From: an uncultured Gemmatimonadota bacterium
GTDB taxonomy: Bacteria; GCA-2686955
Assembly: GCA_964490075.1 (NCBI GenBank)
Contig: CAZBBK010000001.1
Span: 186,001-250,000 of the forward strand
Reading direction: 5' to 3'
DNA: 64,000 bases
Shown here in pieces: positions 13,487 through 30,902 of the stretch. The stretch's first letter is position 1, and each line of letters opens with the position of its first letter. The position numbers and the translations under genes were made by a program. A model generated the notes under the pieces. It searched no databases. It was not told the origin of the DNA and was given only the letters and a program-made list of their open reading frames with translations.

Positions 13487-13507
13487 GGCGCCCTCCGGCT
13501 TCATCCG

Positions 13508-14644
13508 ATGACCATCTACCTCGACAACGCAGCGACCACGCGACCCGATCCGGCGGTCGTCGATGAGCTCCTGGAGGTGTCGCGCCAGGCTTACGGCAAC
13601 GCATCGTCGGTGCACACCGCCGGTGTGCGCGCCGCCAAGGCGATCGAGCGTTCGCGCGCCCGAATCTCCGCGGCGCTCGGCTGCCGGCCGGACGAGCTGA
13701 TCTTCACCTCCGGCGGCACCGAGTCGAACAACCTGGCCCTCAAGGGAATCGCGGCTCGGGCGCCGGAACGAATCGACAGGCGCATCGTCACCACGGCGCT
13801 CGAGCACCCGAGCGTGTCCCGCCCCGCCCATTGGCTCGCCGAGCAGGGCTTCGAGCTGGAGCTGGTGCCGGTGGACGGCGAGGGCCTGGTCGATCCCGAG
13901 CGGGTGCGCCGGGCGCTGGGCGCCAAAGGCGCGTTGGTCTCGATCGCCCAGGGCAACGGCGAGGTGGGAACGATTCAGCCGATCGCCGAGGTCGGCGCGA
14001 TCTGTCGCGAGCACGGGGCTCTTCTGCACGTCGACGCATCGCAGAGCTTCACCAAGGTCGGCATCGACGTCGCGGCCCAGCGCATCGACTTGTTGACGAT
14101 CAGCTCCCATAAGATCCACGGCCCGATCGGCGTGGGGGCGCTCTTCGTGCGCCAGGGCGTCGAGCTCGAGCCGCTGCTGCACGGCGGCGACCACGAGCGC
14201 GGGCTGCGCTCGGGCAGCTCCAACACACCAGGAATCGCGGGCTTCGGCAAGGCGGTGGAGATCGCCGATCCGGCCGACGCGGCGCGCATGACAGCCCGGC
14301 GAAATCGCTTCATCGACGAGATCGGCGCGCGCATCGCCGAGGTGCGGTTGAACGGCCCGCGCGGCGAGCGCCGCCTGTGCAACAACATCAGCCTGTGCAT
14401 CGCCGGCGTCGAGGGACGCGCGCTGCAGGCCGCGCTGAGCCGGCGCGGAATCGCCATCTCCACAGGCTCGGCCTGCTCCTCGACGGTGCGTACCCCGAGC
14501 GCGGCGTTGACGGCGATGGGACTGGACGAGCGAGCGGCGCGCGGCACGGTGCGCGTCACGCTGAGCAAGTGGACAACCGACGCAGAGCTGGAGCAGGCGC
14601 TGAGCACTCTCGAAGAGGCGGTGGCGAAGGAGCGCGGAAGATGA
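13508..14644 (+). CDS. iscS: Cysteine desulfurase (IscS/NifS group I)
   Basis: YLDNAATT, FTSGGTESNN, LHVDASQ, SSHKIHGP (PLP Lys), STGSACSS (catalytic Cys). Confidence 0.93.
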   Translation: MTIYLDNAATTRPDPAVVDELLEVSRQAYGNASSVHTAGVRAAKAIERSRARISAALGCRPDELIFTSGGTESNNLALKGIAARAPERIDRRIVTTALEHPSVSRPAHWLAEQGFELELVPVDGEGLVDPERVRRALGAKGALVSIAQGNGEVGTIQPIAEVGAICREHGALLHVDASQSFTKVGIDVAAQRIDLLTISSHKIHGPIGVGALFVRQGVELEPLLHGGDHERGLRSGSSNTPGIAGFGKAVEIADPADAARMTARRNRFIDEIGARIAEVRLNGPRGERRLCNNISLCIAGVEGRALQAALSRRGIAISTGSACSSTVRTPSAALTAMGLDERAARGTVRVTLSKWTTDAELEQALSTLEEAVAKERGR

Positions 14645-16694: not shown

Positions 16695-19130
16695 ATGTTG
16701 CCCTTGCCGAGATCGCACACGATCATCGCCTGCCTGGTTCTCTGCGCCTCGTGCTCCGATTCGCCGCGGCGACGCGACCCGGTCGATGATCTCGAGCGCG
16801 GCCGGGAATCGGCGGCAAAGCTGATCCCCGCGGAGCTCGAGGTGACGCCCGAGACGGCGCCCCCGGGCGCGCGGCTGAACCTGCGGGCTCGGATTCCGCG
16901 GCCGCCGCCGGGGTGGACGGAGCTGGAGGCCGAAGTCCGCGTGGACGGCGCCGAGACCGGGGACTCGATCGCGCTGCGCGCCACCGGAGAGGCACTGGCG
17001 GGCACCCTTGGCGTCGTCGCGCCGCAAGATCCGGGGGACCACCGCTTCACCCTTCGCGGCCGCGCGGGCGCGCATCGCATCGTGGCACACGCCCTGGTCC
17101 AGGTCAGCGCCGCTCCGTCCTGCGCCGAAGGAGAGGTCCGCGAGGCGGGACGCTGCGTGCCCCGGATCGACGGGCATCACCTGCGTGTGAATCGCGCCAT
17201 CCATGTCAACCAGCGACGCTCGCCTCCGGGGGGCGGCGGAGCGGCGATGACCCATCCTCGCAACGCCACATCGGTCGACGGGGTGGTCGTCGCCTGCATG
17301 ACCGACGCGATCGGACTGATCCCGGTGGCCGAGATGCCCGCGATCGAAGGCCCGCCGGACGGGGCCTCCGAGAGATTGCGCGCCAACCTCGTAGAGGTCT
17401 TCATGAACGAGAGCGGGATCCGCGCCGCCGAGCGCCTGCTGGTGCTCCCGGATCGCGGCATCGTCCTTTCGGCGTCGCGCGGCGCCGACAACTCGGGCCG
17501 GGGCGGCCTCGCGACCTGGCGGCTGCCGCCCCTCGATGCAGCGACCCTCGAGCCGCCGGAGCACCTCTCGTCGGTGGTCGACCGGCGCGGCTTCGGCGCC
17601 ACGTTGCGGGCCGGAGAGCGGATCTACGCCCTTCACAACCCGAACGCGATCGCCCGGGTGCGGATCTCGGACCAGGGCCGGATCGAGGTGAGCGACGAGC
17701 TGACCCTGCCCGCCCTGCGCAACGCGACGGCCATCGCCCACGACGGCATCCACCTCCTGGTGGCGGGCGGGATCGAACCCGGGGCCGAGAGCGAAGGCGC
17801 CGGCACGATCGAAGTGCTCGACGCGCGCGGCACCGGTCCACCGCTCCCACTCGGCTCCGCGCCCACCACCGGAACCCCGCGCGGAATCGCGGTGCTCGAC
17901 GACGCCATGGTCGCCGTCGCCAACGGCGCGCTCGGGATCGACCTCATCGACCTGAGCGACCCGGCGGCGCCGCGCCTGGTCACGACGGTGCCGACGCCAG
18001 CCTCGGCCATGGGGCTCTCGTTCGAGGAGGGCTACCTGCTGGTGGCCGACTGGGACAATATCCGGCTCTACGACGCATCGCGGCGCGGGCAGCTGCGGCT
18101 TCTCGACGCCTTGGACGGATTCCATTCCGCCTTTCGGGCGGCAGGCGGCGGGCTCCACCGCAACGGTCTCACGGCCGCCAACTTCGTGCGCCTGGAGGGG
18201 GGGCGATTCCTGGCGGGGGAGCTCGACGTGCTGCTGGTCGGCGAGATCCGTCGCGGCGCGGGAGCGCCTCGACTGGTGATCCACGATCGCAACCACCTGC
18301 GGCGGCGCGGCGCCGGCGAGGATCAGCCCTTCACCATCCGGGTGTCGAACGGTGGCCGCCACCAGCTCGACCTGATGCAGCCGGGCGATCCGGATCCGGA
18401 GGCGGGCGGGCACTGGTGCCTCGCTCCGGGCCGATCGGCGAAGCTCGAGCTTCGCGCCTCGGGGGTAGCGCTCGAACGGCGCCGCGGCGACACGGCGGTC
18501 GTGATCCGCTCCAACGATCCCGAGCACCGGCGCACGCGCATCGGCCTGCTCCCCGCGAGCGACTATTCTGTGGGGGACCCGGCCCCGAGCTTCCGGCTGC
18601 CGATGGTCAACATCTGCCCCGACGGCAGCTGCCCGGAGCGCGTGGGCTGCTTCGATCTGCAAGAGGAGCTGGCGCGCGGACGGCCGATTCTGCTGGCCGC
18701 CTTCGCCTCCTGGTGACCGATCTGCGGTCTGGAGGTTCCAGACCTGATGAGCGCCGTGAGGCGCGAGTTCACGCCCGAAAAGGTGCGCGCGCTCGCGATC
18801 AACTGGCGCCAGGATCGACGCATCGTGCGCAAGTTCATCGCCGATACCGGCCTCGAGGTGCCGGTGCTGCTCGATCGCGAGCGCGGCGGCGACCCCTCCT
18901 GTTTCGCGCTGCCCTCCGGCTCGGCGGAGACGCTCACGGAGCATTTTCGCGATCGAGTGCGATCGGTGGGAACCGACGCCCCCTTCCCCTTGCAGATCAT
19001 CATCGACCCCGAGGGCCGACTGGCCTATCTGAGCCGCGTCCACTCTTCCGAGAGGGCGATCACGGTCCTCAGAGGACTGGTGGAACAGCAGCGCGAAGAA
19101 CCCGGACAGATCGCGGCGGAGACTCGATGA
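16695..19130 (+). CDS. Putative selenoprotein 1: lipoprotein with Ig-like domain, LVIVD beta-propeller, Ig-like domain and TlpA/redoxin domain (UxxC)
   Basis: Lipobox-like LCASC; LVIVD-type repeats. Track ORFs 16497..18716 and 18747..19130 are in frame across TGA 18714-18716, giving AFASW-U-PICGLEVPDL...LAINW...VPVLLD...PFPLQIIID; SECIS-like hairpin follows. Confidence 0.88.
18726..18744 (+). promoter_or_regulatory. Bacterial SECIS-like hairpin
   Basis: GGTCTGGA-GGT-TCCAGACC, a perfect 8-bp stem with a G-containing loop, 9 nt after the UGA; identical in the paralog. Confidence 0.82.
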
Positions 19131-20878
19131 GCCACGCCGCAGCGTGCCCCGTCCCATCCGGATCGAGCGGACGATCGATCGTGATCGTCGCGCCGCGCTT
19201 CACTTCCCTGCGTCGCTTCGGCGTCGACTCCCTGGAAGTCCCGCTGCGCCTGATGACCCGGCAGGGCGCACCGGCTTCGCTGGTCCATCTCGACGCGATC
19301 ATCCATTCATCGACCCTGAGAGCGGCGCCGCGCGGCGGTGGTCTGAACCGGGTGAATCCGATGGCCGGTTACTACCTGGAGAGCTTCTTCAAGCAGCGCG
19401 GCTACCGGGCAATCGCGCTCTTCGACATGAATGACGCCGCGGCGCTCAGGCGGGCCATGCGGACCGATCCGCTGGCCCTGCTCTTCTCGACGACCTTCGT
19501 CACCGAGCCCGCGGTGCTGGTCGCCTGTCTGCGCAAGCTGCGCGCTGCCGCCGGCCCCACGCCGATCCTGGTCGGCGGCCAGTACATCGACATGCAGGCC
19601 TGGTTCCTGCGAACCGACCGCAGCAATCGTTGGAAACGAGACCTGGCCGAGCTCGGCGTCGCATCGAGCGAATATCTTCTCTTCCATGAGCGCAGCGATC
19701 CACTGCTGCGAAAGTGCATCTTCATCGCCTCGGCCCAGGGCGAGCACACGGCCGCAAGGGTCCTCCAAAGGCTGGAGAAAGGCCGCGGAGCCAGTGAAGA
19801 TCTCGCCGATATTCCCAACCTGGTGCTCCGCGATTCGGAGCGCGGCTGGCATCATTCAAGTGTTTGGCGCGAGCCCGTGGATCTGGACCAGGATTACACG
19901 CGGTGGGATTTGATCGACGAGATGCCCTCCGCGGTTCCGATTCGCAGCGTGCTCGGGTGCGCCGAGAGGTGTAAATTCTGTGGCTTTCGAATCCTCCATC
20001 CTCGGGTGGTGGGACGCGGCGCCGCGTCGATCATCGACGAAGTGAAGCTGGCCATGGCGCGCGGCGTGGCCTTCTTCAACTTCGTCGACGACAATGTTTT
20101 CGTGACTCCCGAGCGCGCCCGCTGCCTCTGTGAGAGCCTCGTCCGGGCGGAGCTCGACATGGTCTGGGGCGCCTTCTTCAACGCCGACCGGGTCAGCGAA
20201 GTGAACGCCGAGCAAATCGTCGAGTCGGGGTTCCGCTACGGTCTGACCGGCCTGGAGAGCGGAGATCCGAGGCAGCTGGAGCGACTCGGCAAGAGGGGCG
20301 ATCCCGGCGCGCGAGTGCGCGGAGTGGAGCTACTCACCAGCCTTGGGGCAATCATCGACTGCACCTTCTTGGTCGGATTCCCCGGCGAGAGCGAGGCGAC
20401 GCTCGATGCCACCGCCGCGTTGATCAACTCCCTGCCCACCGGCGGCGCGGGCCATGCCTGCTTCGAGCTCTTCCCATTCACGCTGCTGTCCGGCACGGAG
20501 GCGGACACCCCGAGATTTCGGCGCGAGCACGATCTCAGAGGGGGCGGCTCGGACTGGTCTCACGCCACGATGGGCAGCTCCGAAGTGGTCGATCGCTACG
20601 CGCCGCACACCTTCCGACAGGTCGACCACATCCCCTACTATCATGGAGATATCGACGCGCCTTCCTGGTGGGACCCGAAGCGGAGAGACGAGGCCTTCGC
20701 CCGGCGGACCGCGATCACCCACGCCTTCATGGACAGCCGGGACGACGCCTGGATACAGAGACTCTTCGACGACCTTCATCGGCTCATCGCCGATCCCGGG
20801 CGGCGCGGCGACCCACCGCGTTGGACCGAGATTCTGGCCGATCGGGAGGGGCAATCGACCGGGATGATCCGACCTTGA
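19127..20878 (+). CDS. B12-binding (class B) radical SAM protein, PhpK-like features
   Basis: Start ATG 19127 (ATGA overlap). Cobalamin-type N-domain (LLFSTTF...ILVGG, QGE, IPNL), CAERCKFC, FVDDN, GLESG, LVGFPGE, WSHATM. Confidence 0.85.
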   Translation: MSHAAACPVPSGSSGRSIVIVAPRFTSLRRFGVDSLEVPLRLMTRQGAPASLVHLDAIIHSSTLRAAPRGGGLNRVNPMAGYYLESFFKQRGYRAIALFDMNDAAALRRAMRTDPLALLFSTTFVTEPAVLVACLRKLRAAAGPTPILVGGQYIDMQAWFLRTDRSNRWKRDLAELGVASSEYLLFHERSDPLLRKCIFIASAQGEHTAARVLQRLEKGRGASEDLADIPNLVLRDSERGWHHSSVWREPVDLDQDYTRWDLIDEMPSAVPIRSVLGCAERCKFCGFRILHPRVVGRGAASIIDEVKLAMARGVAFFNFVDDNVFVTPERARCLCESLVRAELDMVWGAFFNADRVSEVNAEQIVESGFRYGLTGLESGDPRQLERLGKRGDPGARVRGVELLTSLGAIIDCTFLVGFPGESEATLDATAALINSLPTGGAGHACFELFPFTLLSGTEADTPRFRREHDLRGGGSDWSHATMGSSEVVDRYAPHTFRQVDHIPYYHGDIDAPSWWDPKRRDEAFARRTAITHAFMDSRDDAWIQRLFDDLHRLIADPGRRGDPPRWTEILADREGQSTGMIRP

Positions 20879-23800
20879 GCACGCCCGCAGCGGAACCGCC
20901 ACCGAGCTCTTCCTGGCGCTCGATGCCTTCGCGAATCCCCTCGATCGACGCGCGCTTCGCCACCGCGCTGCTGGTGCTCGTGATCATCGCAGCCTTCGTC
21001 GCGGCCGAGCTGGCGCTCTCCACCGAGATGATCGCCTCGACCCTCTTCCTCGACGGACGGGACGGGGCGGGCTACCTGGAACGAGCCAGCGGACCCTGGC
21101 TGCAGACCGACGGCTACCACGGGCCGGCCTACTCGTGGGCGATTCGCGTCGTCTCCGGTCTCGGGATGGACCCGTGCCGCGCGGCGCGCTGGGCGAGTGG
21201 GGGCTTCGCGGGGCTGTTCCTGGCCGCGTCGTGGCGGCTCCTCGCGGGTCTGGGCCGGCGCCGCGAGGCGCTGCTGGCGTGTGCGCTCCTGGCCACCCAT
21301 CCGCTGGTGATCCGCGCCGGGCTGGGCACCCGCTCGGACATGATGGGGGCCGCCCTTTTCGTGACAGCGCTGGCGATCTACCTGGAGCATCGCATGCCGC
21401 ATCGCCGGCGCGCGCTGCTCGCGGGGGCGGTGCTCGGCCTCGCCTACATGACCCGCTTCGTCTATGTCCTGGGGCTCGCGATCCCGGTCGTGGATCTGTG
21501 CATCGCCGCGCGCGACCGGAGCGCGCTGCGGCGGGCGCTCGCGAAGACCTTGTCCTTCGGCGCCGGATTCCTGGGGGCGGCCGCGCCCTGGCTCTGGCAC
21601 GTTGCGACGCAGCCCGGCGTCCGCTTACTGGGCTTCAACCACATCAACGTGGCCTTCAAGCTCTTCCACGATGCGAACGACTGGGGCAGCTTCCCGAACC
21701 GGCACGACTACGGTGGGATCGTCGATGTGTTGCGCCGCGATCCCGCGCACTTCTTCGAATCGTGGGGGCGCTCGCTGCTCCGCCTGCCGTACGACATGGC
21801 GCAGCTCTTCCCCGATCTGGAGCTGCTCTGCGCCGCGGGCGCCCTGGTCTGGTTGTTCAAGGGGGAGCGCCGACACCTGGCCTTGGTGGTGCCTTGTGCC
21901 TGCTACGCCGCGGCGATCTCCATGGTGCACTACAGCGGACACCACCTGGTGACCCTGGCACCGCTGGCCGCGGGGTTGGTCGCCGCGGGATTGGCGTGGC
22001 TGCCGAATCGCCTCAGGCGTTCCGGGCGGCGCACAACGCTGCCGATCTGGCCGCTGGCGGCGGGCGCCGTGGTCTGGATCTGCGCGGCGCGGGGAGTCGA
22101 GCGGTATCGTGGGTACGAGGATCGCTGGGCGAGCCTCGCGGCGGCGGCGGACGCGCTGCGGGAGCATGCGCCCAAGGAGGCTCGGGTCTGGGGGCTGGAT
22201 CCGGCGGTCGCGGAGCTATCGGGAACCCGGCCGGTCGACATGTGGCGGAGCCTGACGGAGAACCGCGGCGTCGAGCTCGGGGAGCTGCTGCGCCGGGAAG
22301 ACGTCGACTACGTGGTGCTCGACGCCAACACCGCCGCCGCCTTCCCCCGCACCGCACCGCTCTACCGCGATCCCGAGAGCGCGCGCGGCACCTCGCTGTT
22401 CGAACCGATCCACGTCTCGGGAGACGCGCCGACCTGCGGCATCGTGGTGTTCTCGGTGACCGGCGGCGTCGACGCACCGGCGGCCCCCAACATCGTCATC
22501 CTCGACATCGATATCTTGCGCGCCGACGCGCTGCCCTGCTTCGGCAATTCTCGCGACACCGCTCCGAATCTATGTCGCTTCGGCGCGGGCGCGGTGCTCT
22601 TCGAGCGCAACTTCTCCCCCTCGTTCTGGACCCTGCCGGCGCTGGTCTCCACCTTGACCGCTCAGTACCCCTCGCGCCACGGCCTCTTCGTCACACCGAT
22701 GGGCGCGCGGCTGCGGGGACTGAAGGCCGGTCGCCTGGCGGAAAACACCTGGACGCTGCCGAGCATCCTCGCCGCCAACGGCTACTCGACCCACTACGTG
22801 GGACAGGACAACACGCGCCTGCTCAACGAGGAAAACGGGATGCTGGGCGAGTTCGAGCAGAGCACGGAATCGAGCGGCATCGAGTCGTGGCTGGCGGCTC
22901 TGCGCCGGGCCGAGGAACACGGCTCCCCCTTCTTCGTCCATTTCTACTCACGCGGGGTGCGCCTTCCCTACTCCGACGACAACCACGGGCGCCCCCTCTC
23001 CGACGACCTGCGCCGCTGGTCCGATGCCCAGCTCGTGCCACCCCCCGGCTTCCCCGCCACGCCCCGGGCGCTGGAGCTGGCCAGCGCGCGGCCCGTGGCC
23101 GCCCGACCCGAGCACTACTTTCCGCCCTGGGCGATGGAGCGACGCCCCGAGCTCTTCACCAGCGACCAGGGCGGCGACCCACAGGAGATCTTCGCCTACC
23201 TGTGCTCGATCCGCGAGGAGCTGGAACCGCCCTACCGCCACCGCGCCCAGGATGCCCTCTGGTCTCCTTGGCGCGATGCCGTGACCGGGGGCGGCGAGGC
23301 GGCGCGAGCCTACGCCCGCCTGCAGTACGACACCAAGGTGCGTCATCTCGATCGACTCCTGGGGCCGCTACTCGACCATCTGTCGGGGCCGCGGGCCGAC
23401 GATACCATCGTCGTCGTCAGCTCGACCCACGGCGAGTTCATCGGCGAGCACGACTTGGTCGGCCATGGGCGCAACCTCTTTCAAGAGGTGCTTCATACAC
23501 CCTTGATGGTGCGCATTTCCGGGTTCAAGCCTACGCGCATCGCCGAGATCACGCAGCACGTCGACATCCTTCCCACGCTGCTCGATGCGCTGGGAATCCG
23601 CATTCCCGAGCGCGCCCAGGGGCTCTCATTGCTGCCCTGGATGCGCCGCGGACAGGGCGACCGGGAGCGCTTCGCGATCAGCGAGATGGAGCTACACTCG
23701 GCCTGCATCCAAAGCCGTAACTGGAAGCTGATCGCGCGGAGGGCAGAGCCGCGCTCGATCCCGCGACAGCTTTTCCACCTGGCAAAAGATCCACGAGAAG

Positions 23801-23964
23801 AGCACGATCTACTCGGCCGTGAGCGCGCTCTCGGCGATCAGCTCGGTCGAATTCTGGATGCGACGCTCGGCGATCCAGCCCGCTGGGCGCTGGAGCCCGG
23901 CGAAGGCCGCGCTCTGCTCGACGACGCCGCGCGCGAGCAGGTGCAGCGGCGCGGCTACTTCTGA
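20875..23964 (+). CDS. Fusion of a GT-C/PMT-like multi-TM glycosyltransferase domain and a sulfatase-like domain
   Basis: TTG 20875 (TTGA overlap) or ATG ~20923. Multi-TM N-half (DG.GY, HGPAY, RSD, GLAYMTR); C-half PNIVILDIDILRAD, WTLPAL, STHGE, VDILPT, LFHLAKDPRE. Confidence 0.8.
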   Translation: MSTPAAEPPPSSSWRSMPSRIPSIDARFATALLVLVIIAAFVAAELALSTEMIASTLFLDGRDGAGYLERASGPWLQTDGYHGPAYSWAIRVVSGLGMDPCRAARWASGGFAGLFLAASWRLLAGLGRRREALLACALLATHPLVIRAGLGTRSDMMGAALFVTALAIYLEHRMPHRRRALLAGAVLGLAYMTRFVYVLGLAIPVVDLCIAARDRSALRRALAKTLSFGAGFLGAAAPWLWHVATQPGVRLLGFNHINVAFKLFHDANDWGSFPNRHDYGGIVDVLRRDPAHFFESWGRSLLRLPYDMAQLFPDLELLCAAGALVWLFKGERRHLALVVPCACYAAAISMVHYSGHHLVTLAPLAAGLVAAGLAWLPNRLRRSGRRTTLPIWPLAAGAVVWICAARGVERYRGYEDRWASLAAAADALREHAPKEARVWGLDPAVAELSGTRPVDMWRSLTENRGVELGELLRREDVDYVVLDANTAAAFPRTAPLYRDPESARGTSLFEPIHVSGDAPTCGIVVFSVTGGVDAPAAPNIVILDIDILRADALPCFGNSRDTAPNLCRFGAGAVLFERNFSPSFWTLPALVSTLTAQYPSRHGLFVTPMGARLRGLKAGRLAENTWTLPSILAANGYSTHYVGQDNTRLLNEENGMLGEFEQSTESSGIESWLAALRRAEEHGSPFFVHFYSRGVRLPYSDDNHGRPLSDDLRRWSDAQLVPPPGFPATPRALELASARPVAARPEHYFPPWAMERRPELFTSDQGGDPQEIFAYLCSIREELEPPYRHRAQDALWSPWRDAVTGGGEAARAYARLQYDTKVRHLDRLLGPLLDHLSGPRADDTIVVVSSTHGEFIGEHDLVGHGRNLFQEVLHTPLMVRISGFKPTRIAEITQHVDILPTLLDALGIRIPERAQGLSLLPWMRRGQGDRERFAISEMELHSACIQSRNWKLIARRAEPRSIPRQLFHLAKDPREEHDLLGRERALGDQLGRILDATLGDPARWALEPGEGRALLDDAAREQVQRRGYF

Positions 23965-26123
23965 TCGTGGAATCGAGCCTCAGGAGTATTCGGCATCTCC
24001 TGCGATCGGTAGCGGTTGAGCTCGAACATCGAAATCTCTATCTCGATCCTCTCGAGCGAGCGTCCGGCATCCCATCTCTCCGGTCTTCGCACCAGCTCCA
24101 CACCGATAGCACTGATCTCCGTCGCGAGGGTCCATTCCGGTACGCCAGCCAGACCGAATACATAGCGATGCGGCTCTCCGTCGGCGAATAAGGGGGTCGC
24201 GACGGATCGGCGCCAACGAAACGAGGGGTCGGCCGGCGATTGCCAGTAGACCCGTAGCTTGGGCAAGGCATTTCGGGTGGCGAGCGAGCCGAAGCGATCG
24301 GGGGAGAGGGGTGCCGCTTCCTCGGGCTCCATCCGCGCGGACATGACCAGGTTCAAAACATCGAAATCCGCCCCTCGCATCGGCCCCAGGCCGACGAGCA
24401 TCAGCGCCGGCGTCACCGCGCTCTGTTGGCGCGATTCCGGAGCCAGCCGATCCGATGTGTGACGCAGCCCACCGCGGTCGGTCCGGACCAAATCGCCGCG
24501 CGATGCCATCCAGCTCACGCCGGTATCGGCGCCGAGAAGAGCTCGCGGCGGGCGATCGATGGGGCGCTCGCCCTCGAGATGCCAGCCCTTCATCACGGCG
24601 TCCGTGATCGAGCTGATGCGCAGGTCGTGATCGTGGGCGATTTGGAGCACGGTAAAGGGGAGAGCCTCGCGCAGCGCATCGGCCCCGAATCCATCCTCCA
24701 CGATGCGTGGCAAGCATCTGGAACCGATTGCCAGAGGATCGGCGGCCATCTCTGCGCATGGAAGCGCCGCGTCGAGCGATCCATGCAAGACATAGCGATA
24801 ATCGAGCGGATAGCGGCGCTGCAAATAGCGAGAGAAGAGGAAGCTCGGGACCCGACTCGACGGATGCCGGTCCACGACGAAAACAGTATTTTCCTCGGGG
24901 ATCGCCGGCAGCGCGCCCAGAACTGCTCGCTCCGGTTCCTCTCCGGGGTGCCCCCTCCCCCTTGCCCTGCGCGCACTCGACTCGGCATCGAGGAGCGCCA
25001 GGTAGGCGCAGCCAAGGGTCGCAACGCACAACCAGGCCGCCCGAGCTCCTCGACCGCGAACCCAGGGTGTCACCGCCACCGCGAGCCCCGGCAGGAGGAT
25101 CGCCGCGGTCAAATGACAGAAGCGAAAGGGAGGGGTCGGCTCCGGACCGAGCATTACCCAAGCGTAGCCGGCGGGGAGGCCGGCGACGAACATGCCGATC
25201 ACTGTCGCCGCGAACACGACTCCCGCCGCGCGATACTCCTCGCCGCGCCGGCTCGCCATCCAGGCGGCGACGCCCGCGAGGGCGAGGAGCAAGAAGATCG
25301 TCGGATCCCGATCGAGCCCTGGACGGGCCAGCAGACAGAGCGGCAGATCGTAGAAGGCGAAGCGCAGCGTGCTCATCGCCACGACGGCCGAGCCCGGCGC
25401 TCGGACCAGCGGGGGGTTGATGAGGGAGTAGACGAGAAGGACCGCGGCCAGGAGCGGTACAAGGGTCTTCATGGGCCGCCGCGGCGCGGCGGGAGTCACG
25501 ATGCAGAGGAGCAGCGCCACGATCGGAAACGAAACCGCCGTTTCCTTGCAGAACAACCCGCATGCCCACAATGCGCCACCCACGCCCAGCCAAGCGTGGC
25601 TCTTCCCGCGCCGCCACCCCAATACGGACGCCAGAGCGAGCAGGAAGAACATCGTCGTCAGCACGTGCTCGCGGGCCGATATCCACGCCACGGATTTGTC
25701 CATCACCGGCAGCACCACGAAGAGCTGCGCCGCGCAGAATCCGAGCGTGGGGCTGGAGCCCAGTCTGGTCGCCACGCGATAGAGCGCGCAGGCCGCGACC
25801 AGGTGCGCCGCCAGATCGACCGCGGCGAAGGGAGCCGCGTTCAGGCCCCAGATCTCCCACTGCAACCCCCAGAGCAGCAGGGAGAGGGGACGGTACTTGG
25901 TGCCGGATGAAACTGCTTCGAAGAGCTCGGCGCCATTCCCGGCGCGTAGCAGATGCGCGATCCCTTCGGCGATGTCGACATTGTGCCAGTCGTCCCAGCC
26001 GTAGAATTGACCATCGAGCGCCGCACCCCAGGCCACCCATAGCAGAGAGGCGAACCATCCCGCGCCCATCGCCATGGTGACCGTTGAGCGCCCGAGCAAG
26101 CAATCCGACTCGAATCTGAGCAT
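23955..26123 (-). CDS. Multi-TM GT-C-like membrane protein
   Basis: WDDW, YRPL, SVAWISAR, GLFCKETA motifs, many TM segments and a soluble C-terminal domain; start uncertain. Confidence 0.65.
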   Translation of the reverse strand: MLRFESDCLLGRSTVTMAMGAGWFASLLWVAWGAALDGQFYGWDDWHNVDIAEGIAHLLRAGNGAELFEAVSSGTKYRPLSLLLWGLQWEIWGLNAAPFAAVDLAAHLVAACALYRVATRLGSSPTLGFCAAQLFVVLPVMDKSVAWISAREHVLTTMFFLLALASVLGWRRGKSHAWLGVGGALWACGLFCKETAVSFPIVALLLCIVTPAAPRRPMKTLVPLLAAVLLVYSLINPPLVRAPGSAVVAMSTLRFAFYDLPLCLLARPGLDRDPTIFLLLALAGVAAWMASRRGEEYRAAGVVFAATVIGMFVAGLPAGYAWVMLGPEPTPPFRFCHLTAAILLPGLAVAVTPWVRGRGARAAWLCVATLGCAYLALLDAESSARRARGRGHPGEEPERAVLGALPAIPEENTVFVVDRHPSSRVPSFLFSRYLQRRYPLDYRYVLHGSLDAALPCAEMAADPLAIGSRCLPRIVEDGFGADALREALPFTVLQIAHDHDLRISSITDAVMKGWHLEGERPIDRPPRALLGADTGVSWMASRGDLVRTDRGGLRHTSDRLAPESRQQSAVTPALMLVGLGPMRGADFDVLNLVMSARMEPEEAAPLSPDRFGSLATRNALPKLRVYWQSPADPSFRWRRSVATPLFADGEPHRYVFGLAGVPEWTLATEISAIGVELVRRPERWDAGRSLERIEIEISMFELNRYRSQEMPNTPEARFHDQK

Positions 26124-26271: not shown

Positions 26272-28740
26272 ATGGCTCCACCCTCTCCGCCGGGGCGATC
26301 CCGCCGCTGGTGGTCGATCGCCGCTCTTCCGGTACTGGTCTTGGCCGTGGCCTGGGGACTGCGATCCAGGTCGCCGCGCCCGCCTCTGGGAGACACACCG
26401 ATTCCGCGATCGGGCATGCGATCGCCGCAGCGCAATGAGCTCGACGCCGAGCTGCTCCCGGCGCGGCTCGAGGCGACGCCCGCGCAGGTCCGACCGAACG
26501 CCCCCCTGACGCTGACCCTGCGCCTCCGCCACCCACCCGAGGACTGGTCCACGCCGACCTTCTCGATCTCCCTGAACGGCGCACCGACCGAGCATCGGAT
26601 CACGCTCGATCGGCTGCAGGGTTCCATGGAAGGCGCTCTCGAGCTCGCCGCTCCCTCCCAGAAGGGAGACCATCTTTTCAGCGTCCACGGGCGTGAGGGC
26701 GAGCGACGCATCGCGACCCACGCGCTGGTCCATGTCAGCGCCGGTGATGCCTGCGCGCCGGGGGAAATGCGCGAAGCGGGCTCTTGCGTGCCGATCGCGG
26801 AGGGCCACCACATCCGCTTCGAGGGCGGCGTGAACGTGAACAACCGCGGTCCGGATCGTTACGCCGGCGGACAGATGACCCACCCGCGGGCCGCGGCGCG
26901 GATCGGCGATGTGATCGTTGCCTGCATGACCGACGCGATCGGCCTGATCCCGGCCGACGAGCTTCCGAAGATCGGCGAGCCGGAGACCGGCGCGGCCGAT
27001 CGGCTGCGCTCGCACCTGGTCGAGGTACTGCTGGAGAAGAGCGGCATCGTGGCCTGCGAGAATTTTCTGGTCCTTGCCGACCGGGGGATCGTCATCACCT
27101 CGTCGCGCGGCGCGGACCGGCAGACCGCGGGCGGGCTGGCGAGCTGGCGGCTGCCGCCCCTCGATCGCCGTCCCCTCGCCCCACCACGCCACATCTCCAC
27201 CCTCACCAGCTCGGGAGGGTTCGAGGGAGTGGCTCGCCACGGCGATTGGATCTACGCCGTGCGCAAGCCGAACGCGATCGCCGCGCTGCGGCTTTCGGAC
27301 CAGGGCCGGCTCGGCCTCGAGCACGAGGTGGAGGTGCCGGGGATGCGCGGCGGTTGGGCGATCGCCGCCCGAGCGAACCGGCTTTTCGTGACCGACGCGC
27401 AGGGCGGGACCGATTCGAAAGGCGCGGCGGGTCGGCTCCATGTGCTGGCCCTGACTCCTTCCGGCCGGCCGCGTCTGCTCGGCTCGGCGCCGACCTCGGG
27501 AACGCCCCGGGATGTCGAGCTGCTCGGCTCCGGCGTGGTCGCGGTCGCCAACGGAGCTCTCGGGATCGATCTCTTCGACGTGTCGGAAGCGGGTGCGCCG
27601 ATCCCGATCGCGCGGGTGGAGACCCCGGGATCGACCATGGAGCTCTCGTTCGACGCCGGCTATCTGCTGGTCGCCGACTGGGACAGCATCCGGCTCTACG
27701 ACGCCTCGGAGCACGGTCGCCTGAGGCTTCTCGATGCCGCCGACGCCTTTCACCCTTCGGTCCACATCACCGGCGGCGGACTGGTGAGAACCGGCCTCTT
27801 CGCCGCCAACTTCGTCGATCTGCGCGACGGGCATTTCCTGGCCACCGAGTTCAACGTCCTGCTCAGCGGCCGGATCCAGACCGGTGCGGGCGCGGCGCGG
27901 CTGATCGTTCACGATCGAGGGGTCGCCCTACAGGCAGGCGGCGCGGAAAACCGGCCGATCGCGCTCCGGGTATCGAACGGCGGCCGCCGTCAGCTCGATC
28001 TGAGTCAGCGCGGCCAGGGGCTGACGCGCGGTGGAGGCCCGTGGTCGGTGCCTCCTGGGGCGACGGCGAAGCTGGAGATCGAGCTGGAGCGCGAGCGGGC
28101 CGCCGCGAGGAGCCGCGAATCGGTCATCGTGCTGCACTCCAACGACCCGCTGAAACGGCGGGTCCGAATTCCCGTCACCCCTCCGGCGGGATACCGCCTG
28201 GGGGATCTGCTGCCCTCGTTCCGGCTGCCGATGATCAACCTCTGTCCGGACGGCTCCTGTCCGGAGCGCACCGGCTGCTTCGACCTGGCGGAAGAGATCG
28301 CCAAGGGCCGCCCGATCCTGCTGGCGGCCTTCGCGTCGTGGTGACCGATTTGCGGTCTGGAGGTTCCAGACCTGATGAGCGCCCTTCGCGATGAGTTCGG
28401 ACCCGACCAGGTGGGCGCCGTCGCGATCAACTGGAGGCAGCCGCGCGGGATCGTCGAGAAGTTCGTCACCGACACCGGATTGCGGACGCCGATCCTGCTC
28501 GATCTCGGCCCCGGCCTGGATCCCCAGTGCTTCGCTCTTCCCCCCGGCCCCGAGCCCACGGTAATCGAGCACTTCCGCAACCGGGTGGTCTCCGAGGGCT
28601 TCAATGTGCCCTTCCCCTTGCAGATCATCGTCGATGCCGAGGGTCGCCTGGCCTTCGCCAGCCGCCGCCACGACGCCGAAGAGGCGTTGGAGGTGCTGAG
28701 GAGGCTGATCCGGGGGGATGGAGACAGGGAGCGGGGATGA
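26272..28740 (+). CDS. Putative selenoprotein 2: membrane-anchored Ig / LVIVD beta-propeller / Ig / TlpA-redoxin (UxxC)
   Basis: Full-length paralog of 16695..19130. Track ORFs 26074..28344 and 28375..28740 are in frame across TGA 28342-28344, giving AFASW-U-PICGLEVPDL. Confidence 0.88.
28354..28372 (+). promoter_or_regulatory. Bacterial SECIS-like hairpin
   Basis: GGTCTGGA-GGT-TCCAGACC, identical in sequence and spacing to 18726-18744. Confidence 0.82.
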
Positions 28741-30902
28741 ACGCCATGCCGACCGGGGCTCAGGTCGATTGGGGCGCGGTCCTGCGATTCCCCTGGCTGG
28801 TGCCCCTGGCCGTGGTGCTGGTGGCGTGGCGGGCCGGAAAGCTCCTGGAGGACTGGGCCCCCGAGCGCCAGCGTTCGCTCCCGCCCCCAGCACGGTCTCC
28901 CGGCTGGGCGCGGCTCGGCCTGCTCGGCGCATTGCTCAGCGCCCTCGGCCTGCGCCTCTACCGGATCGGCGCCGAGCCGATGGACCTCTTAGAGTACACC
29001 TACTTCTTCATGTCCGCCGGGGGGCGCGGCATCGCCGACCTGCTCTTCGCCGAGATCTCGCTGCAACAGGCACACCAACCCCTGCAGCACCTGATCCTGG
29101 CGCTCTTGGACCGCCTCTCCTCGGCCAACGAGGCGTGGATGCGCCTCCCGAGCGCGCTGCTCGGCACGGCGGCGATCGCAGTGGTTTGGACCTGGCTGCG
29201 CGAGCTCTTCAAGGGCCGCGAGCGGCTGGCGCTCGGCGCCGCCTGGCTGGTGGCGCTGCACCCGATCGAGCTCTGGTACGGCCGCGACATGACCCCCTAC
29301 GGCCTCTTCGCGCTGCTCGCCGCCGGCTCCTACCTCTGCCTCTGGCGCGGCCTGGAGCGCGGCACCCACTGGCGCCCTTTCGTGGTGCTCTCGGTGCTGG
29401 GTTTCTACCTGCACTACTACGAGATCTGGGTGCTCTTCTCGCAAATCTTGCTGGTCGCCGGCTACGTGCTGCTCTCCGAAGAGCGGCCGCGCCCCTGGCG
29501 CGCCGGCGCCCAGGCGATGCGCGCCATGACCTTCGCCGCGCTCTGCGTGGTGCCCTGGCTGCCCTTCTTCTTCCGCGCGCTGACCCTCGGCTACGCCTCG
29601 CTGAACGTCACCGGGGCCGCCTTCTCGGCCGACCTCACCCTGCTGCAGGCCCTGCCGGAGGGCTATCGCCAGATCATCGGCCTGCCTCCCGAGCTCTGGG
29701 GTCCCGCGCCAGGGGTCCTGGCGGCGGCCCTCCAGACCCTGGGAGCCGCGCTCCTCCTGCGCCGCGAGCGCGCCGCGGCGATCGCCATCCTGGCCCCGAT
29801 CGCCGGCGGAATCGTCACCGAGCTGATCTTCTACTGGAAGCTGCACAGCCTGACCGAGGGCTACTACCTGCAGATCCGCCACTACATCTACCTGATCCCC
29901 TCGAGCATCGTGCTGCTGCTGGCCGGCGGCGAACGCCTCTGCCGACTCTTGCGCCCGCTCTCGCCGCGCCTGGCCAGCGCCGCGCTCCCCCTCGCGGCAC
30001 TGGGACTGCTGACGATCCAGGTGGAGTACGGCTGGCGCTTCGTCGCGGGCGGCCAGCGCGGCGACCTGCGCACCATGGTGCGGGAGATCCGCGCCCGGGC
30101 CGAGGACGGCGACGCGATCGCGGTGCTGCCCGCCTCGTTCTACAGCCACCTCTTCGGCTACTACTTCTTCGAGGACGAGGAGGACCAGGGCGACCTCTTC
30201 GGCTCCGCGGGGTGGCACACCATCCACGCCGGGAGCGGCCCGCCGGCGACGATCTTCGTGCCTCTGACCCAGTTCCAGCTGCCCTTCCGCTTCGGCGTGG
30301 AGAACCTCTTCTTCGAGCGCCTGTGGATCGTGCACTTCCAGGAGGAGGTGCTCGATCTGCGCAAGTTCTCCGACGCCCCCCACAGCGAGCTGCTCGCCCG
30401 GTTGAGCGCTCAGGGGCAGCCGCTCGCGAGCATCGAAGGGAACCGGATTCGCGCCGACCTGGTGCGGCTCGAGCACCGGCGCAAGCCGACCTGGCACGAC
30501 GACCGGCTGCTGCTCGACATGGGTCTGATGGAGACCGAGCACGCCTGGATGCTGCGCCGCACCCGCGACGCCGGCGGAGGGCACCGGCTCGATCTCAGGA
30601 TCCCCTTGGAGCGCGGCGGCGGCGAGCTCGAGCTGCGCTATCGGATCCGCTGGGAGAGCCGGCACTTCCTCCCCCCGCGACGCATCGGAATCGAGGTGGC
30701 CGCCGGGGGGCGGCGCATCGAGCGCTTCACCTTCCAGGAGCCGGACGGGGTGCGGAGAATCGCGATCGGCGACGAGCACCAATCCCCACGCCGCCTCGAT
30801 CTGAGCCTTCGCAGCGACCGCCCGCTCTGGTTCAAGCAGCCCCCGCACACCCTCGACGAGGGCTTCTGTATCGACTGGCTGGTGCTGGAGCGATCGCCAT
30901 GA
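28737..30902 (+). CDS. GT39/PMT-like (GT-C) membrane glycosyltransferase
   Basis: ATG 28737 (ATGA overlap); LRLYRIG, HQPL, RLPSALLG, LHPIELWY, PYGL, FYLHYY, PWLP. Confidence 0.8.
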   Translation: MNAMPTGAQVDWGAVLRFPWLVPLAVVLVAWRAGKLLEDWAPERQRSLPPPARSPGWARLGLLGALLSALGLRLYRIGAEPMDLLEYTYFFMSAGGRGIADLLFAEISLQQAHQPLQHLILALLDRLSSANEAWMRLPSALLGTAAIAVVWTWLRELFKGRERLALGAAWLVALHPIELWYGRDMTPYGLFALLAAGSYLCLWRGLERGTHWRPFVVLSVLGFYLHYYEIWVLFSQILLVAGYVLLSEERPRPWRAGAQAMRAMTFAALCVVPWLPFFFRALTLGYASLNVTGAAFSADLTLLQALPEGYRQIIGLPPELWGPAPGVLAAALQTLGAALLLRRERAAAIAILAPIAGGIVTELIFYWKLHSLTEGYYLQIRHYIYLIPSSIVLLLAGGERLCRLLRPLSPRLASAALPLAALGLLTIQVEYGWRFVAGGQRGDLRTMVREIRARAEDGDAIAVLPASFYSHLFGYYFFEDEEDQGDLFGSAGWHTIHAGSGPPATIFVPLTQFQLPFRFGVENLFFERLWIVHFQEEVLDLRKFSDAPHSELLARLSAQGQPLASIEGNRIRADLVRLEHRRKPTWHDDRLLLDMGLMETEHAWMLRRTRDAGGGHRLDLRIPLERGGGELELRYRIRWESRHFLPPRRIGIEVAAGGRRIERFTFQEPDGVRRIAIGDEHQSPRRLDLSLRSDRPLWFKQPPHTLDEGFCIDWLVLERSP

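Follow-up and report, generated by a model that had tools for sequence, protein, structure and literature searches.

Two paralogous genes in a 64,000-nucleotide (nt) stretch of DNA from an uncultured Gemmatimonadota bacterium (contig CAZBBK010000001.1, positions 186,001 to 250,000; hereafter the window, with a G+C content of 67.7%) very probably encode selenoproteins, in which an internal TGA specifies selenocysteine (Sec, U) under the direction of a selenocysteine insertion sequence (SECIS) hairpin. Paralog 2 extends on the + strand from an ATG at 26272 to a terminal TGA at 28738-28740 (26272..28740), and its translation contains 822 residues, including one Sec codon; the sole in-frame TGA, at 28342..28344 (+), is read here as U691. 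Paralog 1 (16695..19130, +) starts with the ATG at 16695, also ends in TGA, and gives a translation of 811 residues; its sole in-frame TGA, at 18714..18716 (+), would be U674. The G+C content of third codon positions is coding-like on both sides of the internal TGA, with values of 0.82 before and 0.84 after it in paralog 2 and of 0.86 and 0.80 in paralog 1. In both products Sec would occupy the first Cys position of the CxxC motif of a redoxin domain, generating the sequence W-U-P-I-C. The hairpin core that lies just downstream appears to be kept by selection on the RNA, which would also fix the codons of the peptide G-L-E-V-P-D.

The SECIS hairpin of paralog 2, as delimited by folding, pair counts, and codon invariance, is present at 28354..28372 (+), where it begins 9 nt past the TGA and consists of an 8-bp stem and a GGU loop. 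The hairpin predicted by folding in paralog 1, at 18726..18744 (+), is identical to it in every letter and also begins 9 nt past the TGA. The 19-mer folds with an energy of -11.9 kcal/mol (z = -2.87), and only 1 of 200 shuffled sequences is as stable; if the closing A-U pair opens, an alternative fold of 7 bp with a 5-nt loop results. The consensus for bacterial SECIS elements, as given in the text of PMC13188914, comprises a loop of 3-9 nt, an upper stem with 4-16 bp, a G within the first two nucleotides of the loop that is usually followed by G or U, a distance of 16-37 nt from the UGA to the apical loop, and a minimum free energy of -7.5 kcal/mol or lower. The hairpin falls within all of these limits, with its 3-nt GGU loop, its 8-bp stem, a distance of 17 nt from UGA to loop (the 9-nt spacer plus the 8-nt arm), and the folding energy given above. 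No significant structure follows the terminal TGAs of the two genes (z = -0.07 and +0.43).

The original prediction pointed to a block, 18711-18755 in paralog 1 and 28339-28383 in paralog 2, that matches at 44 of 45 nt within diverged surroundings, including synonymous changes just upstream, and this description is accurate throughout. The sole difference is ATC/ATT; the codons just upstream of the block are GCC GCC TTC GCC TCC versus GCG GCC TTC GCG TCG; and the block ranks best among the 2338 45-nt windows of the whole paralog alignment, which is 62.3% identical over 2382 nt. The A/T-ending codons GGT, GTT, and CCA, to which the prediction drew attention in the hairpin, are indeed rare in the 18 other open reading frames (ORFs) of the window, where they make up 63 of 840 Gly codons (GGT, 7.5%), 25 of 633 Val codons (GTT, 3.9%), and 43 of 599 Pro codons (CCA, 7.2%). 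The match of 44/45 is peculiar to this genome (G000); the same pair of paralogs matches at 39/45 in G003 and at 40/45 in G002, two other genomes of the phylum. The part that is kept universally is the hairpin core of about 19 nt and not the full 45 nt.

Contigs from four sequencing runs of one study were also compared, and parts that they leave uncovered were not interpreted. The TGA region is without any difference in the contigs of three further samples from one study. Other organisms in the same samples matched only 28342-28374. The public run contigs break at the repeated stretch (28342-28374 and 18714-18746), and the shared block splits the assembly graph, since one contig of 9655 nt ends in both block copies.

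The TGA and the hairpin are retained in relatives of the two genes. The phylum is represented by five genomes in the collection; the family is present in G000, G002, and G003 and was not found in G001 (83% complete) or G004. Seven copies are seen (two in G000, two in G002, and three in G003, one of which is split over contig ends), and TGA and hairpin are present in all seven. Both paralog types occur in both genera, and the orthologs are 63-65% identical while the paralogs are 49-53% identical; therefore, the duplication predates the split of the genera. A degenerate 31-nt pattern, composed of the TGA and the hairpin, was then run on the species-genome collection and retrieved 13 loci. Five of these repeat copies already counted, and eight are new; the records of these eight carry the labels Deltaproteobacteria, Myxococcota, Rickettsiales, or Proteobacteria. 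The eight new loci encode the same architecture, with 30-37% identity to paralog 2, and contain the TGA in 8/8 cases, but the pattern demanded TGA.

Since the pattern search required the hairpin, a second search was made with only the N-terminal 483 residues. Within the order of G041, 4 of 25 genomes match this query, and the loci of G041, G042, and G068 carry the hairpin sequence; two matches in G062 are N-terminal fragments at contig ends, with the Sec site off the contig. Within the class of G043, 7 of 107 genomes match, yielding six new loci, all six with TGA and hairpin; in one of them (L062, found by tblastn) the hairpin contains a compensatory change. A scan of metagenomes with an N-terminal peptide pattern gave three confirmed loci, again with TGA and hairpin in 3/3, although these may stem from organisms already counted. 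In total, TGA is present in 24 of the 24 loci with a visible site (7 in the phylum and 17 others, some of which may duplicate one organism), Cys is present in none, and the reading frame is preserved across the TGA in all 24. These loci span at least three deep (class-level) lineages. The earlier claim that paralog 2 is a genuine second selenoprotein paralog is strongly supported by the TGA in the seven phylum copies and the 17 further loci. When residues 560-822 were used in a word-indexed protein search, only four proteins were retrieved, a number that understates the size of the family.

Whether the hairpin is maintained as RNA is decided by the distant relatives, which have 28-35% protein identity to paralog 2 and are otherwise scrambled at synonymous positions; the close relatives are only moderately informative. 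Sixteen aligned members, in which the sequence to either side of the TGA is conserved, share 49 residue-invariant degenerate columns, and a single codon is used only at positions +4 (GGT), +5 (CTG), and +6 (GAG) relative to Sec. A stricter test was confined to the 11 members that were found independently of the hairpin pattern. Here there are 68 residue-invariant degenerate columns, and the only fixed codons are once more +4 GGT, +5 CTG, and +6 GAG, which form the 5' arm of the hairpin. Compared pairwise, codons differ on average by 0.102 in the five hairpin columns versus 0.573 in the other 63, and 0 of 100000 random sets of five columns were as low as the hairpin columns. Elsewhere in these members, GGT occupies 18 of 154 invariant-Gly cells and CCA 14 of 132 invariant-Pro cells.

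For close relatives, the aligned sequences give a signal that is real but moderate. Between the two G000 paralogs, 1 of 12 same-residue degenerate codons differs within the 13 codons after Sec, versus 6 of 11 before it, and in a test with six sequences the seven hairpin codons gave a value of 0.200 versus a gene-wide 0.458. A Nei-Gojobori-type sliding window of 15 codons, applied to the G000 paralogs, left the post-Sec window outside the 15 lowest; this window took in two diverged codons together with untrimmed upstream sequence. The drop in synonymous change that the original prediction expected around the hairpin is then modest for the G000 pair and decisive in the 11 members.

Covariation of the hairpin in homologs, also foreseen, is seen as well: wobble and compensatory changes keep the pairing. 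In the paralog 2 stems of G002 and G003, a change of CCA to CCG converts a U-A pair to U-G, and a change of GAC to GAT converts a G-C pair to G-U. In G107, GAT is present at both +4 and +9, creating an A-U pair where other members have G-C or G-U. Within the family the second stem pair consequently forms a series of G-C, G-U (paralog 2 of G002 and G003), and A-U (G107). The loop of G108 is GUU in place of GGU, a replacement of Val by Phe. When more remote Sec-redoxin relatives are included (13 sequences), pairing is seen in 95.6% of 91 cells, three of seven pairs have changes on both sides, and slid registers reach at most 60%.

The predicted layout of paralog 2 comprises an N-terminal hydrophobic anchor, an immunoglobulin (Ig)-like domain, a β-propeller, another Ig-like domain, a Cys-rich linker, and a C-terminal thioredoxin-fold domain with the W-U-P-I-C motif. 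Paralog 1 shares this layout except at the N-terminus, which is lipoprotein-like. Inspection of the N-termini by eye reveals a lipoprotein-like L-[TL]-S-C in paralog 1 and its orthologs and a hydrophobic anchor in the clade of paralog 2; we infer from this that both proteins are exported and tethered to the membrane outside the cytoplasm. The redoxin domain forms the C-terminal fifth of the protein of about 820 residues. Matches to Pfam span the Sec position in each case. AhpC-TSA (PF00578, cut-off 26) scores 27.7 bits in paralog 2 (residues 668-745, around U691) and 37.7 bits in paralog 1 (around U674), while Redoxin (PF08534, cut-off 26.6) scores 26.8 and 35.3 bits, respectively. A search of solved structures returned 17 sequences at E <=0.01, which are thiol-disulfide oxidoreductases of the thioredoxin-family, ResA, StoA, and DsbE/CcmG types, and in the three alignments that were inspected (ResA, StoA, and a thioredoxin-family chain) the TGA position is aligned with the first Cys of W-C-P-x-C.

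An AlphaFold2 model of paralog 2, made from an alignment of 12 sequences, has a mean predicted local distance difference test (pLDDT) score of 73 and a predicted template modelling (pTM) score of 0.78. In order, it shows an all-β region (about residues 60-190), the propeller (about 310-540), another β domain (about 560-635), and a β-α-β fold (about 650-815). Comparison of the model with the Protein Data Bank (PDB) by Foldseek found only generic propellers and filamin-NHL proteins, and thus no functional lead. The propeller family LVIVD (PF08309) scores below its cut-off in paralog 1 (17.6 versus 20.2 bits) and has no match in paralog 2; the propeller fold is nevertheless supported by AlphaFold2 and Foldseek despite the sub-threshold LVIVD score, and shorter relatives do carry precomputed PF08309 domains. 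Besides Sec, five Cys are invariant in 16/16 aligned members, at positions -36, -30, -23, +3, and +76 relative to Sec. Three of the five form a C-x5-C-x6-C linker directly before the redoxin domain; these linker cysteines may act as a disulfide relay or bind a metal.

The genome (95% complete, 136 contigs) contains profile matches to selA (430 bits), the SelB winged-helix domain (71 bits), and selD (318 bits), and one copy of tRNA-Sec is located at C3:54953-55049. The selD gene (contig C65) itself holds one TGA. No tRNA gene is present within the window. TGA is also a stop codon in this genome, since both paralogs and many other genes end in it. A crude scan of the genome gave 202 TGAs with coding-like open frames on both sides; 6 of the 202 are followed by a SECIS-like hairpin, and 4 of these 6 lie in W-U-x-x-C. 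Further in-frame TGAs with coding-like flanks are found at C38:37416, C48:18932, C1:43334, C4:92299, and C3:127802, several of them in W-U-x-x-C or before hairpins, and this genome looks rich in selenoproteins.

In the proposed mechanism, a ribosome that arrives at the internal UGA would find, 9 nt farther on, a hairpin bound by SelB carrying Sec-tRNA(Sec), and Sec would be inserted instead of termination taking place. The product of about 820 residues would then be tethered outside the cytoplasm by an N-terminus of the lipoprotein type in paralog 1 and of the signal-anchor type in paralog 2. It would present a TlpA/ResA-like fold with a selenol-thiol pair, U-P-I-C, mounted on a β-propeller that is flanked by Ig-like domains, and the propeller probably holds the substrate. 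When selenium is lacking, translation would stop at the UGA, leaving a product without the active site.

Several observations weigh against this interpretation. The structure used for the pair counts on 13 sequences was derived from those same related, protein-coding sequences, and the controls therefore overstate the result. At the Rfam gathering thresholds no family was matched in the window. The synonymous drop of the G000 pair alone is moderate, with 12 of 389 windows as low. Several pairs that include paralog 2 of G002 or of G003 show no drop over the 13 post-Sec codons; in one such pair the differing codons number 7 of 12, a level that 426 of 502 windows equal or undercut. In the test with six sequences, the value of the hairpin codons is matched or undercut by 7 of 277 windows, and a block of common codons elsewhere is lower still. 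The evidence for export is the N-terminal sequence, and the role given to the propeller is a guess. As a separate observation, a 21-nt sequence (GCC TGC ATG ACC GAC GCG ATC; 26920-26940 in paralog 2, 17292-17312 in paralog 1) is the same in all six close members and is built entirely from common G/C-ending codons; this invariance probably arises from codon bias and not from structure.

The 44/45 identity in G000 could have been generated by recent gene conversion or by codon bias rather than by selection on the RNA, an explanation that seems unlikely. In its favour, the block flanks (CCG ATY TGC and CTG ATG AGC GCC) vary in relatives, the matches in G003 and G002 are lower, and the 21-nt stretch just described provides an example of common G/C-ending codons that are invariant in six sequences with no structure suggested. 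However, the hairpin core is identical in the distant members, is made of rare A/T-ending codons, and varies only by changes that preserve stem pairing. Conversion may be the source of the extra flank identity in G000; as an explanation of the hairpin core, it was ruled out by the codon tests on 16 and 11 members. It is very improbable that the internal TGA is instead a true stop and that each locus holds two genes, one for a propeller protein (about 690 residues) and one for a small protein (about 120 residues) starting at an ATG just after the hairpin (28375 or 18747). Gene callers do give this result: an ORF of 121 amino acids (aa) is listed at 28375..28740, and the homologues of the region in the database terminate at ...FASW in 4/4 cases. 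Nevertheless, such an arrangement would split the thioredoxin fold right at the active site, Pfam and PDB alignments continue across the TGA, the frame is kept at every one of the 24 loci, and the Cys form of the wider architecture (P0023, described below) is one uninterrupted protein. Slightly less probable still is the reading of the UGA by a standard tRNA (Trp, Cys, or Arg), or its reassignment in the lineage, with no Sec involved. Sequence by itself cannot name the inserted residue, but TGA serves as a stop in this genome, the Sec machinery is complete, and the site is the catalytic Cys position. Furthermore, the conserved, SECIS-fitting hairpin follows only the internal TGA and not the terminal one, and such hairpins follow only the 6 of 202 candidate TGAs mentioned above. 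SECIS-directed insertion of Sec at both internal TGAs remains the preferred reading.

The original prediction also proposed that selenium supply could influence translation of the next gene through ATGA overlaps. The overlaps are real: paralog 1 shares 19127-19130 with a B12-binding radical SAM gene (PhpK-like; 19127..20878, +; Pfam Radical_SAM; NCBIfam TIGR04479 at 142 bits, below the cut-off of 600), and paralog 2 shares 28737-28740 with a gene for a PMT_2 (GT-C) membrane protein identified by Pfam (28737..30902, +). The stop of the radical SAM gene in turn overlaps, as TTGA at 20875-20878, the TTG start of a gene for a PMT_2 (GT-C) and sulfatase-type fusion (20875..23964, +); overlaps thus link three genes in a chain, from paralog 1 through the radical SAM gene to the GT-C-sulfatase gene. 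A premature stop about 130 codons upstream would be expected to uncouple ribosomes from the downstream start, and termination-reinitiation at the ATGA overlaps could in this way allow selenium to gate translation of the radical SAM and GT-C genes, with the TTGA overlap extending the chain to the next gene. Such gating is nevertheless improbable. Each of the two downstream starts is preceded, at 5-6 nt, by a GGAG of its own, and the orthologs in G002 and G003 terminate with TAG or TAA, overlap no start codon there, and are followed by other genes. In those genomes FG-GAP/UnbV_ASPIC (CRTAC1-like) genes lie after both paralog types (L030:4094-5746, L031:588-2447 on the - strand, and L011:3245-4714), and the G000 ortholog of this neighbour is about 28 kb away. 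When seven neighbours from the window were compared by tblastn with the orthologous loci, no match was obtained at E = 1e-3; the neighbourhood is not conserved, and, on the sequences compared, the radical SAM and GT-C neighbours are context rather than conserved partners. With neither overlaps nor neighbours conserved, selenium-dependent coupling would be genome-specific at best. The comparison leaves the proposed influence of selenium unsupported, though not refuted.

The two paralogs lie within a cluster of genes of the envelope type. Three of its products are PMT_2 GT-C membrane proteins (one fused to a sulfatase-type domain) and two are radical SAM proteins, and the cluster further encodes two TPR-GDSL proteins, an MBOAT protein, a class-V aminotransferase, and an AMP-binding enzyme. 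A divergently transcribed gene between the two paralogs (23955..26123, - strand) encodes a membrane protein with PMT_2 (GT-C); its frame was assigned by the periodicity of third-position G+C and by Pfam, and its start is approximate. The class-V aminotransferase, whose fold is of the cysteine desulfurase / selenocysteine lyase type, is encoded at 13487-14644 (+), about 2 kb upstream of paralog 1.

A wider circle of shorter proteins combines an LVIVD propeller with a redoxin domain. Such proteins with W-U-P-V-C are present in G000 (contig C77), G003, G002, and the unrelated G039. In G000 the TGA is located outside the window, at about position 19006 of C77 (L033:3507), and the protein consists of an LVIVD propeller, an Ig-like domain, a W-U-P-V-C redoxin domain, and a C-terminal sorting-type domain, with a hairpin of its own. 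The sorting-type domain is found wherever the C-terminus is on the contig (5/6 in the protein alignment), and the hairpins of the shorter type have the same register but different sequences. In G039 (C1:106500-113500, L035), genes for two propeller-redoxin proteins, each of about 780 residues, are interleaved with two genes for small secreted redoxins, giving four Sec sites within 7 kb, and the TGA is at the first Cys of the motif in 4/4. Among the 12 best hits of the shorter architecture in the protein database, 11 end at the Sec codon; the remaining one, P0023, is the Cys form, with WCPAC in one uninterrupted protein of 605 aa that has the wider LVIVD-redoxin architecture.

On a more ambitious view, which is conceivable but doubtful, the longer proteins would make up an obligately Sec-using family of extracytoplasmic, propeller-tethered redox enzymes, whose SECIS core has been frozen while the rest diverged to about 30% identity, so that the RNA signal dictates part of the active-site peptide (G-L-E-V-P-D); in this genome, Sec decoding might also gate the overlapped downstream genes of envelope modification.

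The analysis has consequences for annotation, since the database homologues that were retrieved are truncated at the TGA and labelled hypothetical, which hides the redox active site of a large family of exported proteins in marine bacteria. It also provides a clean natural case of selection at the RNA level inside a coding region, in which three of 68 invariant columns are frozen and one stem pair passes through the G-C, G-U, and A-U series. Letter-for-letter conservation of a coding-region RNA signal across about 30% protein identity appears unusually clear here. The degenerate 31-nt pattern retrieves the family from several distantly labelled lineages and, if the obligate use of Sec is true, could serve as a nucleotide probe in metagenomes. 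Selenoproteins of the UxxC redoxin type were already known some twenty years ago, which limits the conceptual gain.

Among known systems, the SECIS element of E. coli fdhF is a hairpin that lies a few nt past the UGA, is bound by SelB, and has G-U in its apical loop. The hairpin described here resembles it in its position close after the UGA and in the apical-loop G-U at a nearly equal distance. However, it differs in stem sequence, shows no evident bulged U, and lies in the gene for an unrelated protein. For the redoxin domain, the best matches of solved structure are ResA, StoA, CcmG/DsbE, and TlpA (3c71_A, 3erw_A, 2b1k_A, and 3kcm_A; E = 4e-5 to 1e-3). The active-site motif aligns with theirs residue for residue, and the same membrane-tethered, outward-facing topology is expected. 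Unlike the proteins considered here, these have Cys instead of Sec and consist of a single domain of about 140-180 residues. The NCBIfam models for ResA, DsbE, and StoA score 17-28 bits, versus cut-offs of 123-359; therefore, the two paralogs are not members of these specific families.

Two catalogued groups of selenoproteins are closer. The "thiol-disulfide isomerase-like protein" selenoproteins (cd02966, TlpA-like; UxxC) were first reported from the Sargasso Sea (PMC1088965) and are also listed in PMC13188914. They share the W-U/C-P-x-C ... E-x-P signature (TlpA/ResA/DsbE-like), an origin in uncultured marine bacteria, and widespread Cys homologues; however, the text of PMC1088965 describes the family from four short sequences and mentions no fusion to a propeller. 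The "Prx-like thiol:disulfide oxidoreductase" selenoproteins (PF00578; UxxC/UxxU), catalogued in PMC13188914 and PMC9312934, are alike in the AhpC-TSA/Redoxin thioredoxin fold, in having Sec first in UxxC, and in a SECIS element just downstream within the coding region. As presented in those texts, they are catalogued by the redox domain alone, whereas the proteins considered here also contain two Ig-like domains, a β-propeller, and the invariant three-Cys linker. A literature search revealed no paper that joins a selenoprotein with LVIVD, and the architecture was not found in the text of PMC13188914, PMC9312934, or PMC1088965, whose supplementary lists may include it. Judged from its predicted features, the pair is a multidomain member, not found in the text of the catalogues, of the known UxxC class of TlpA/Prx-like selenoproteins, whose defining features it carries.

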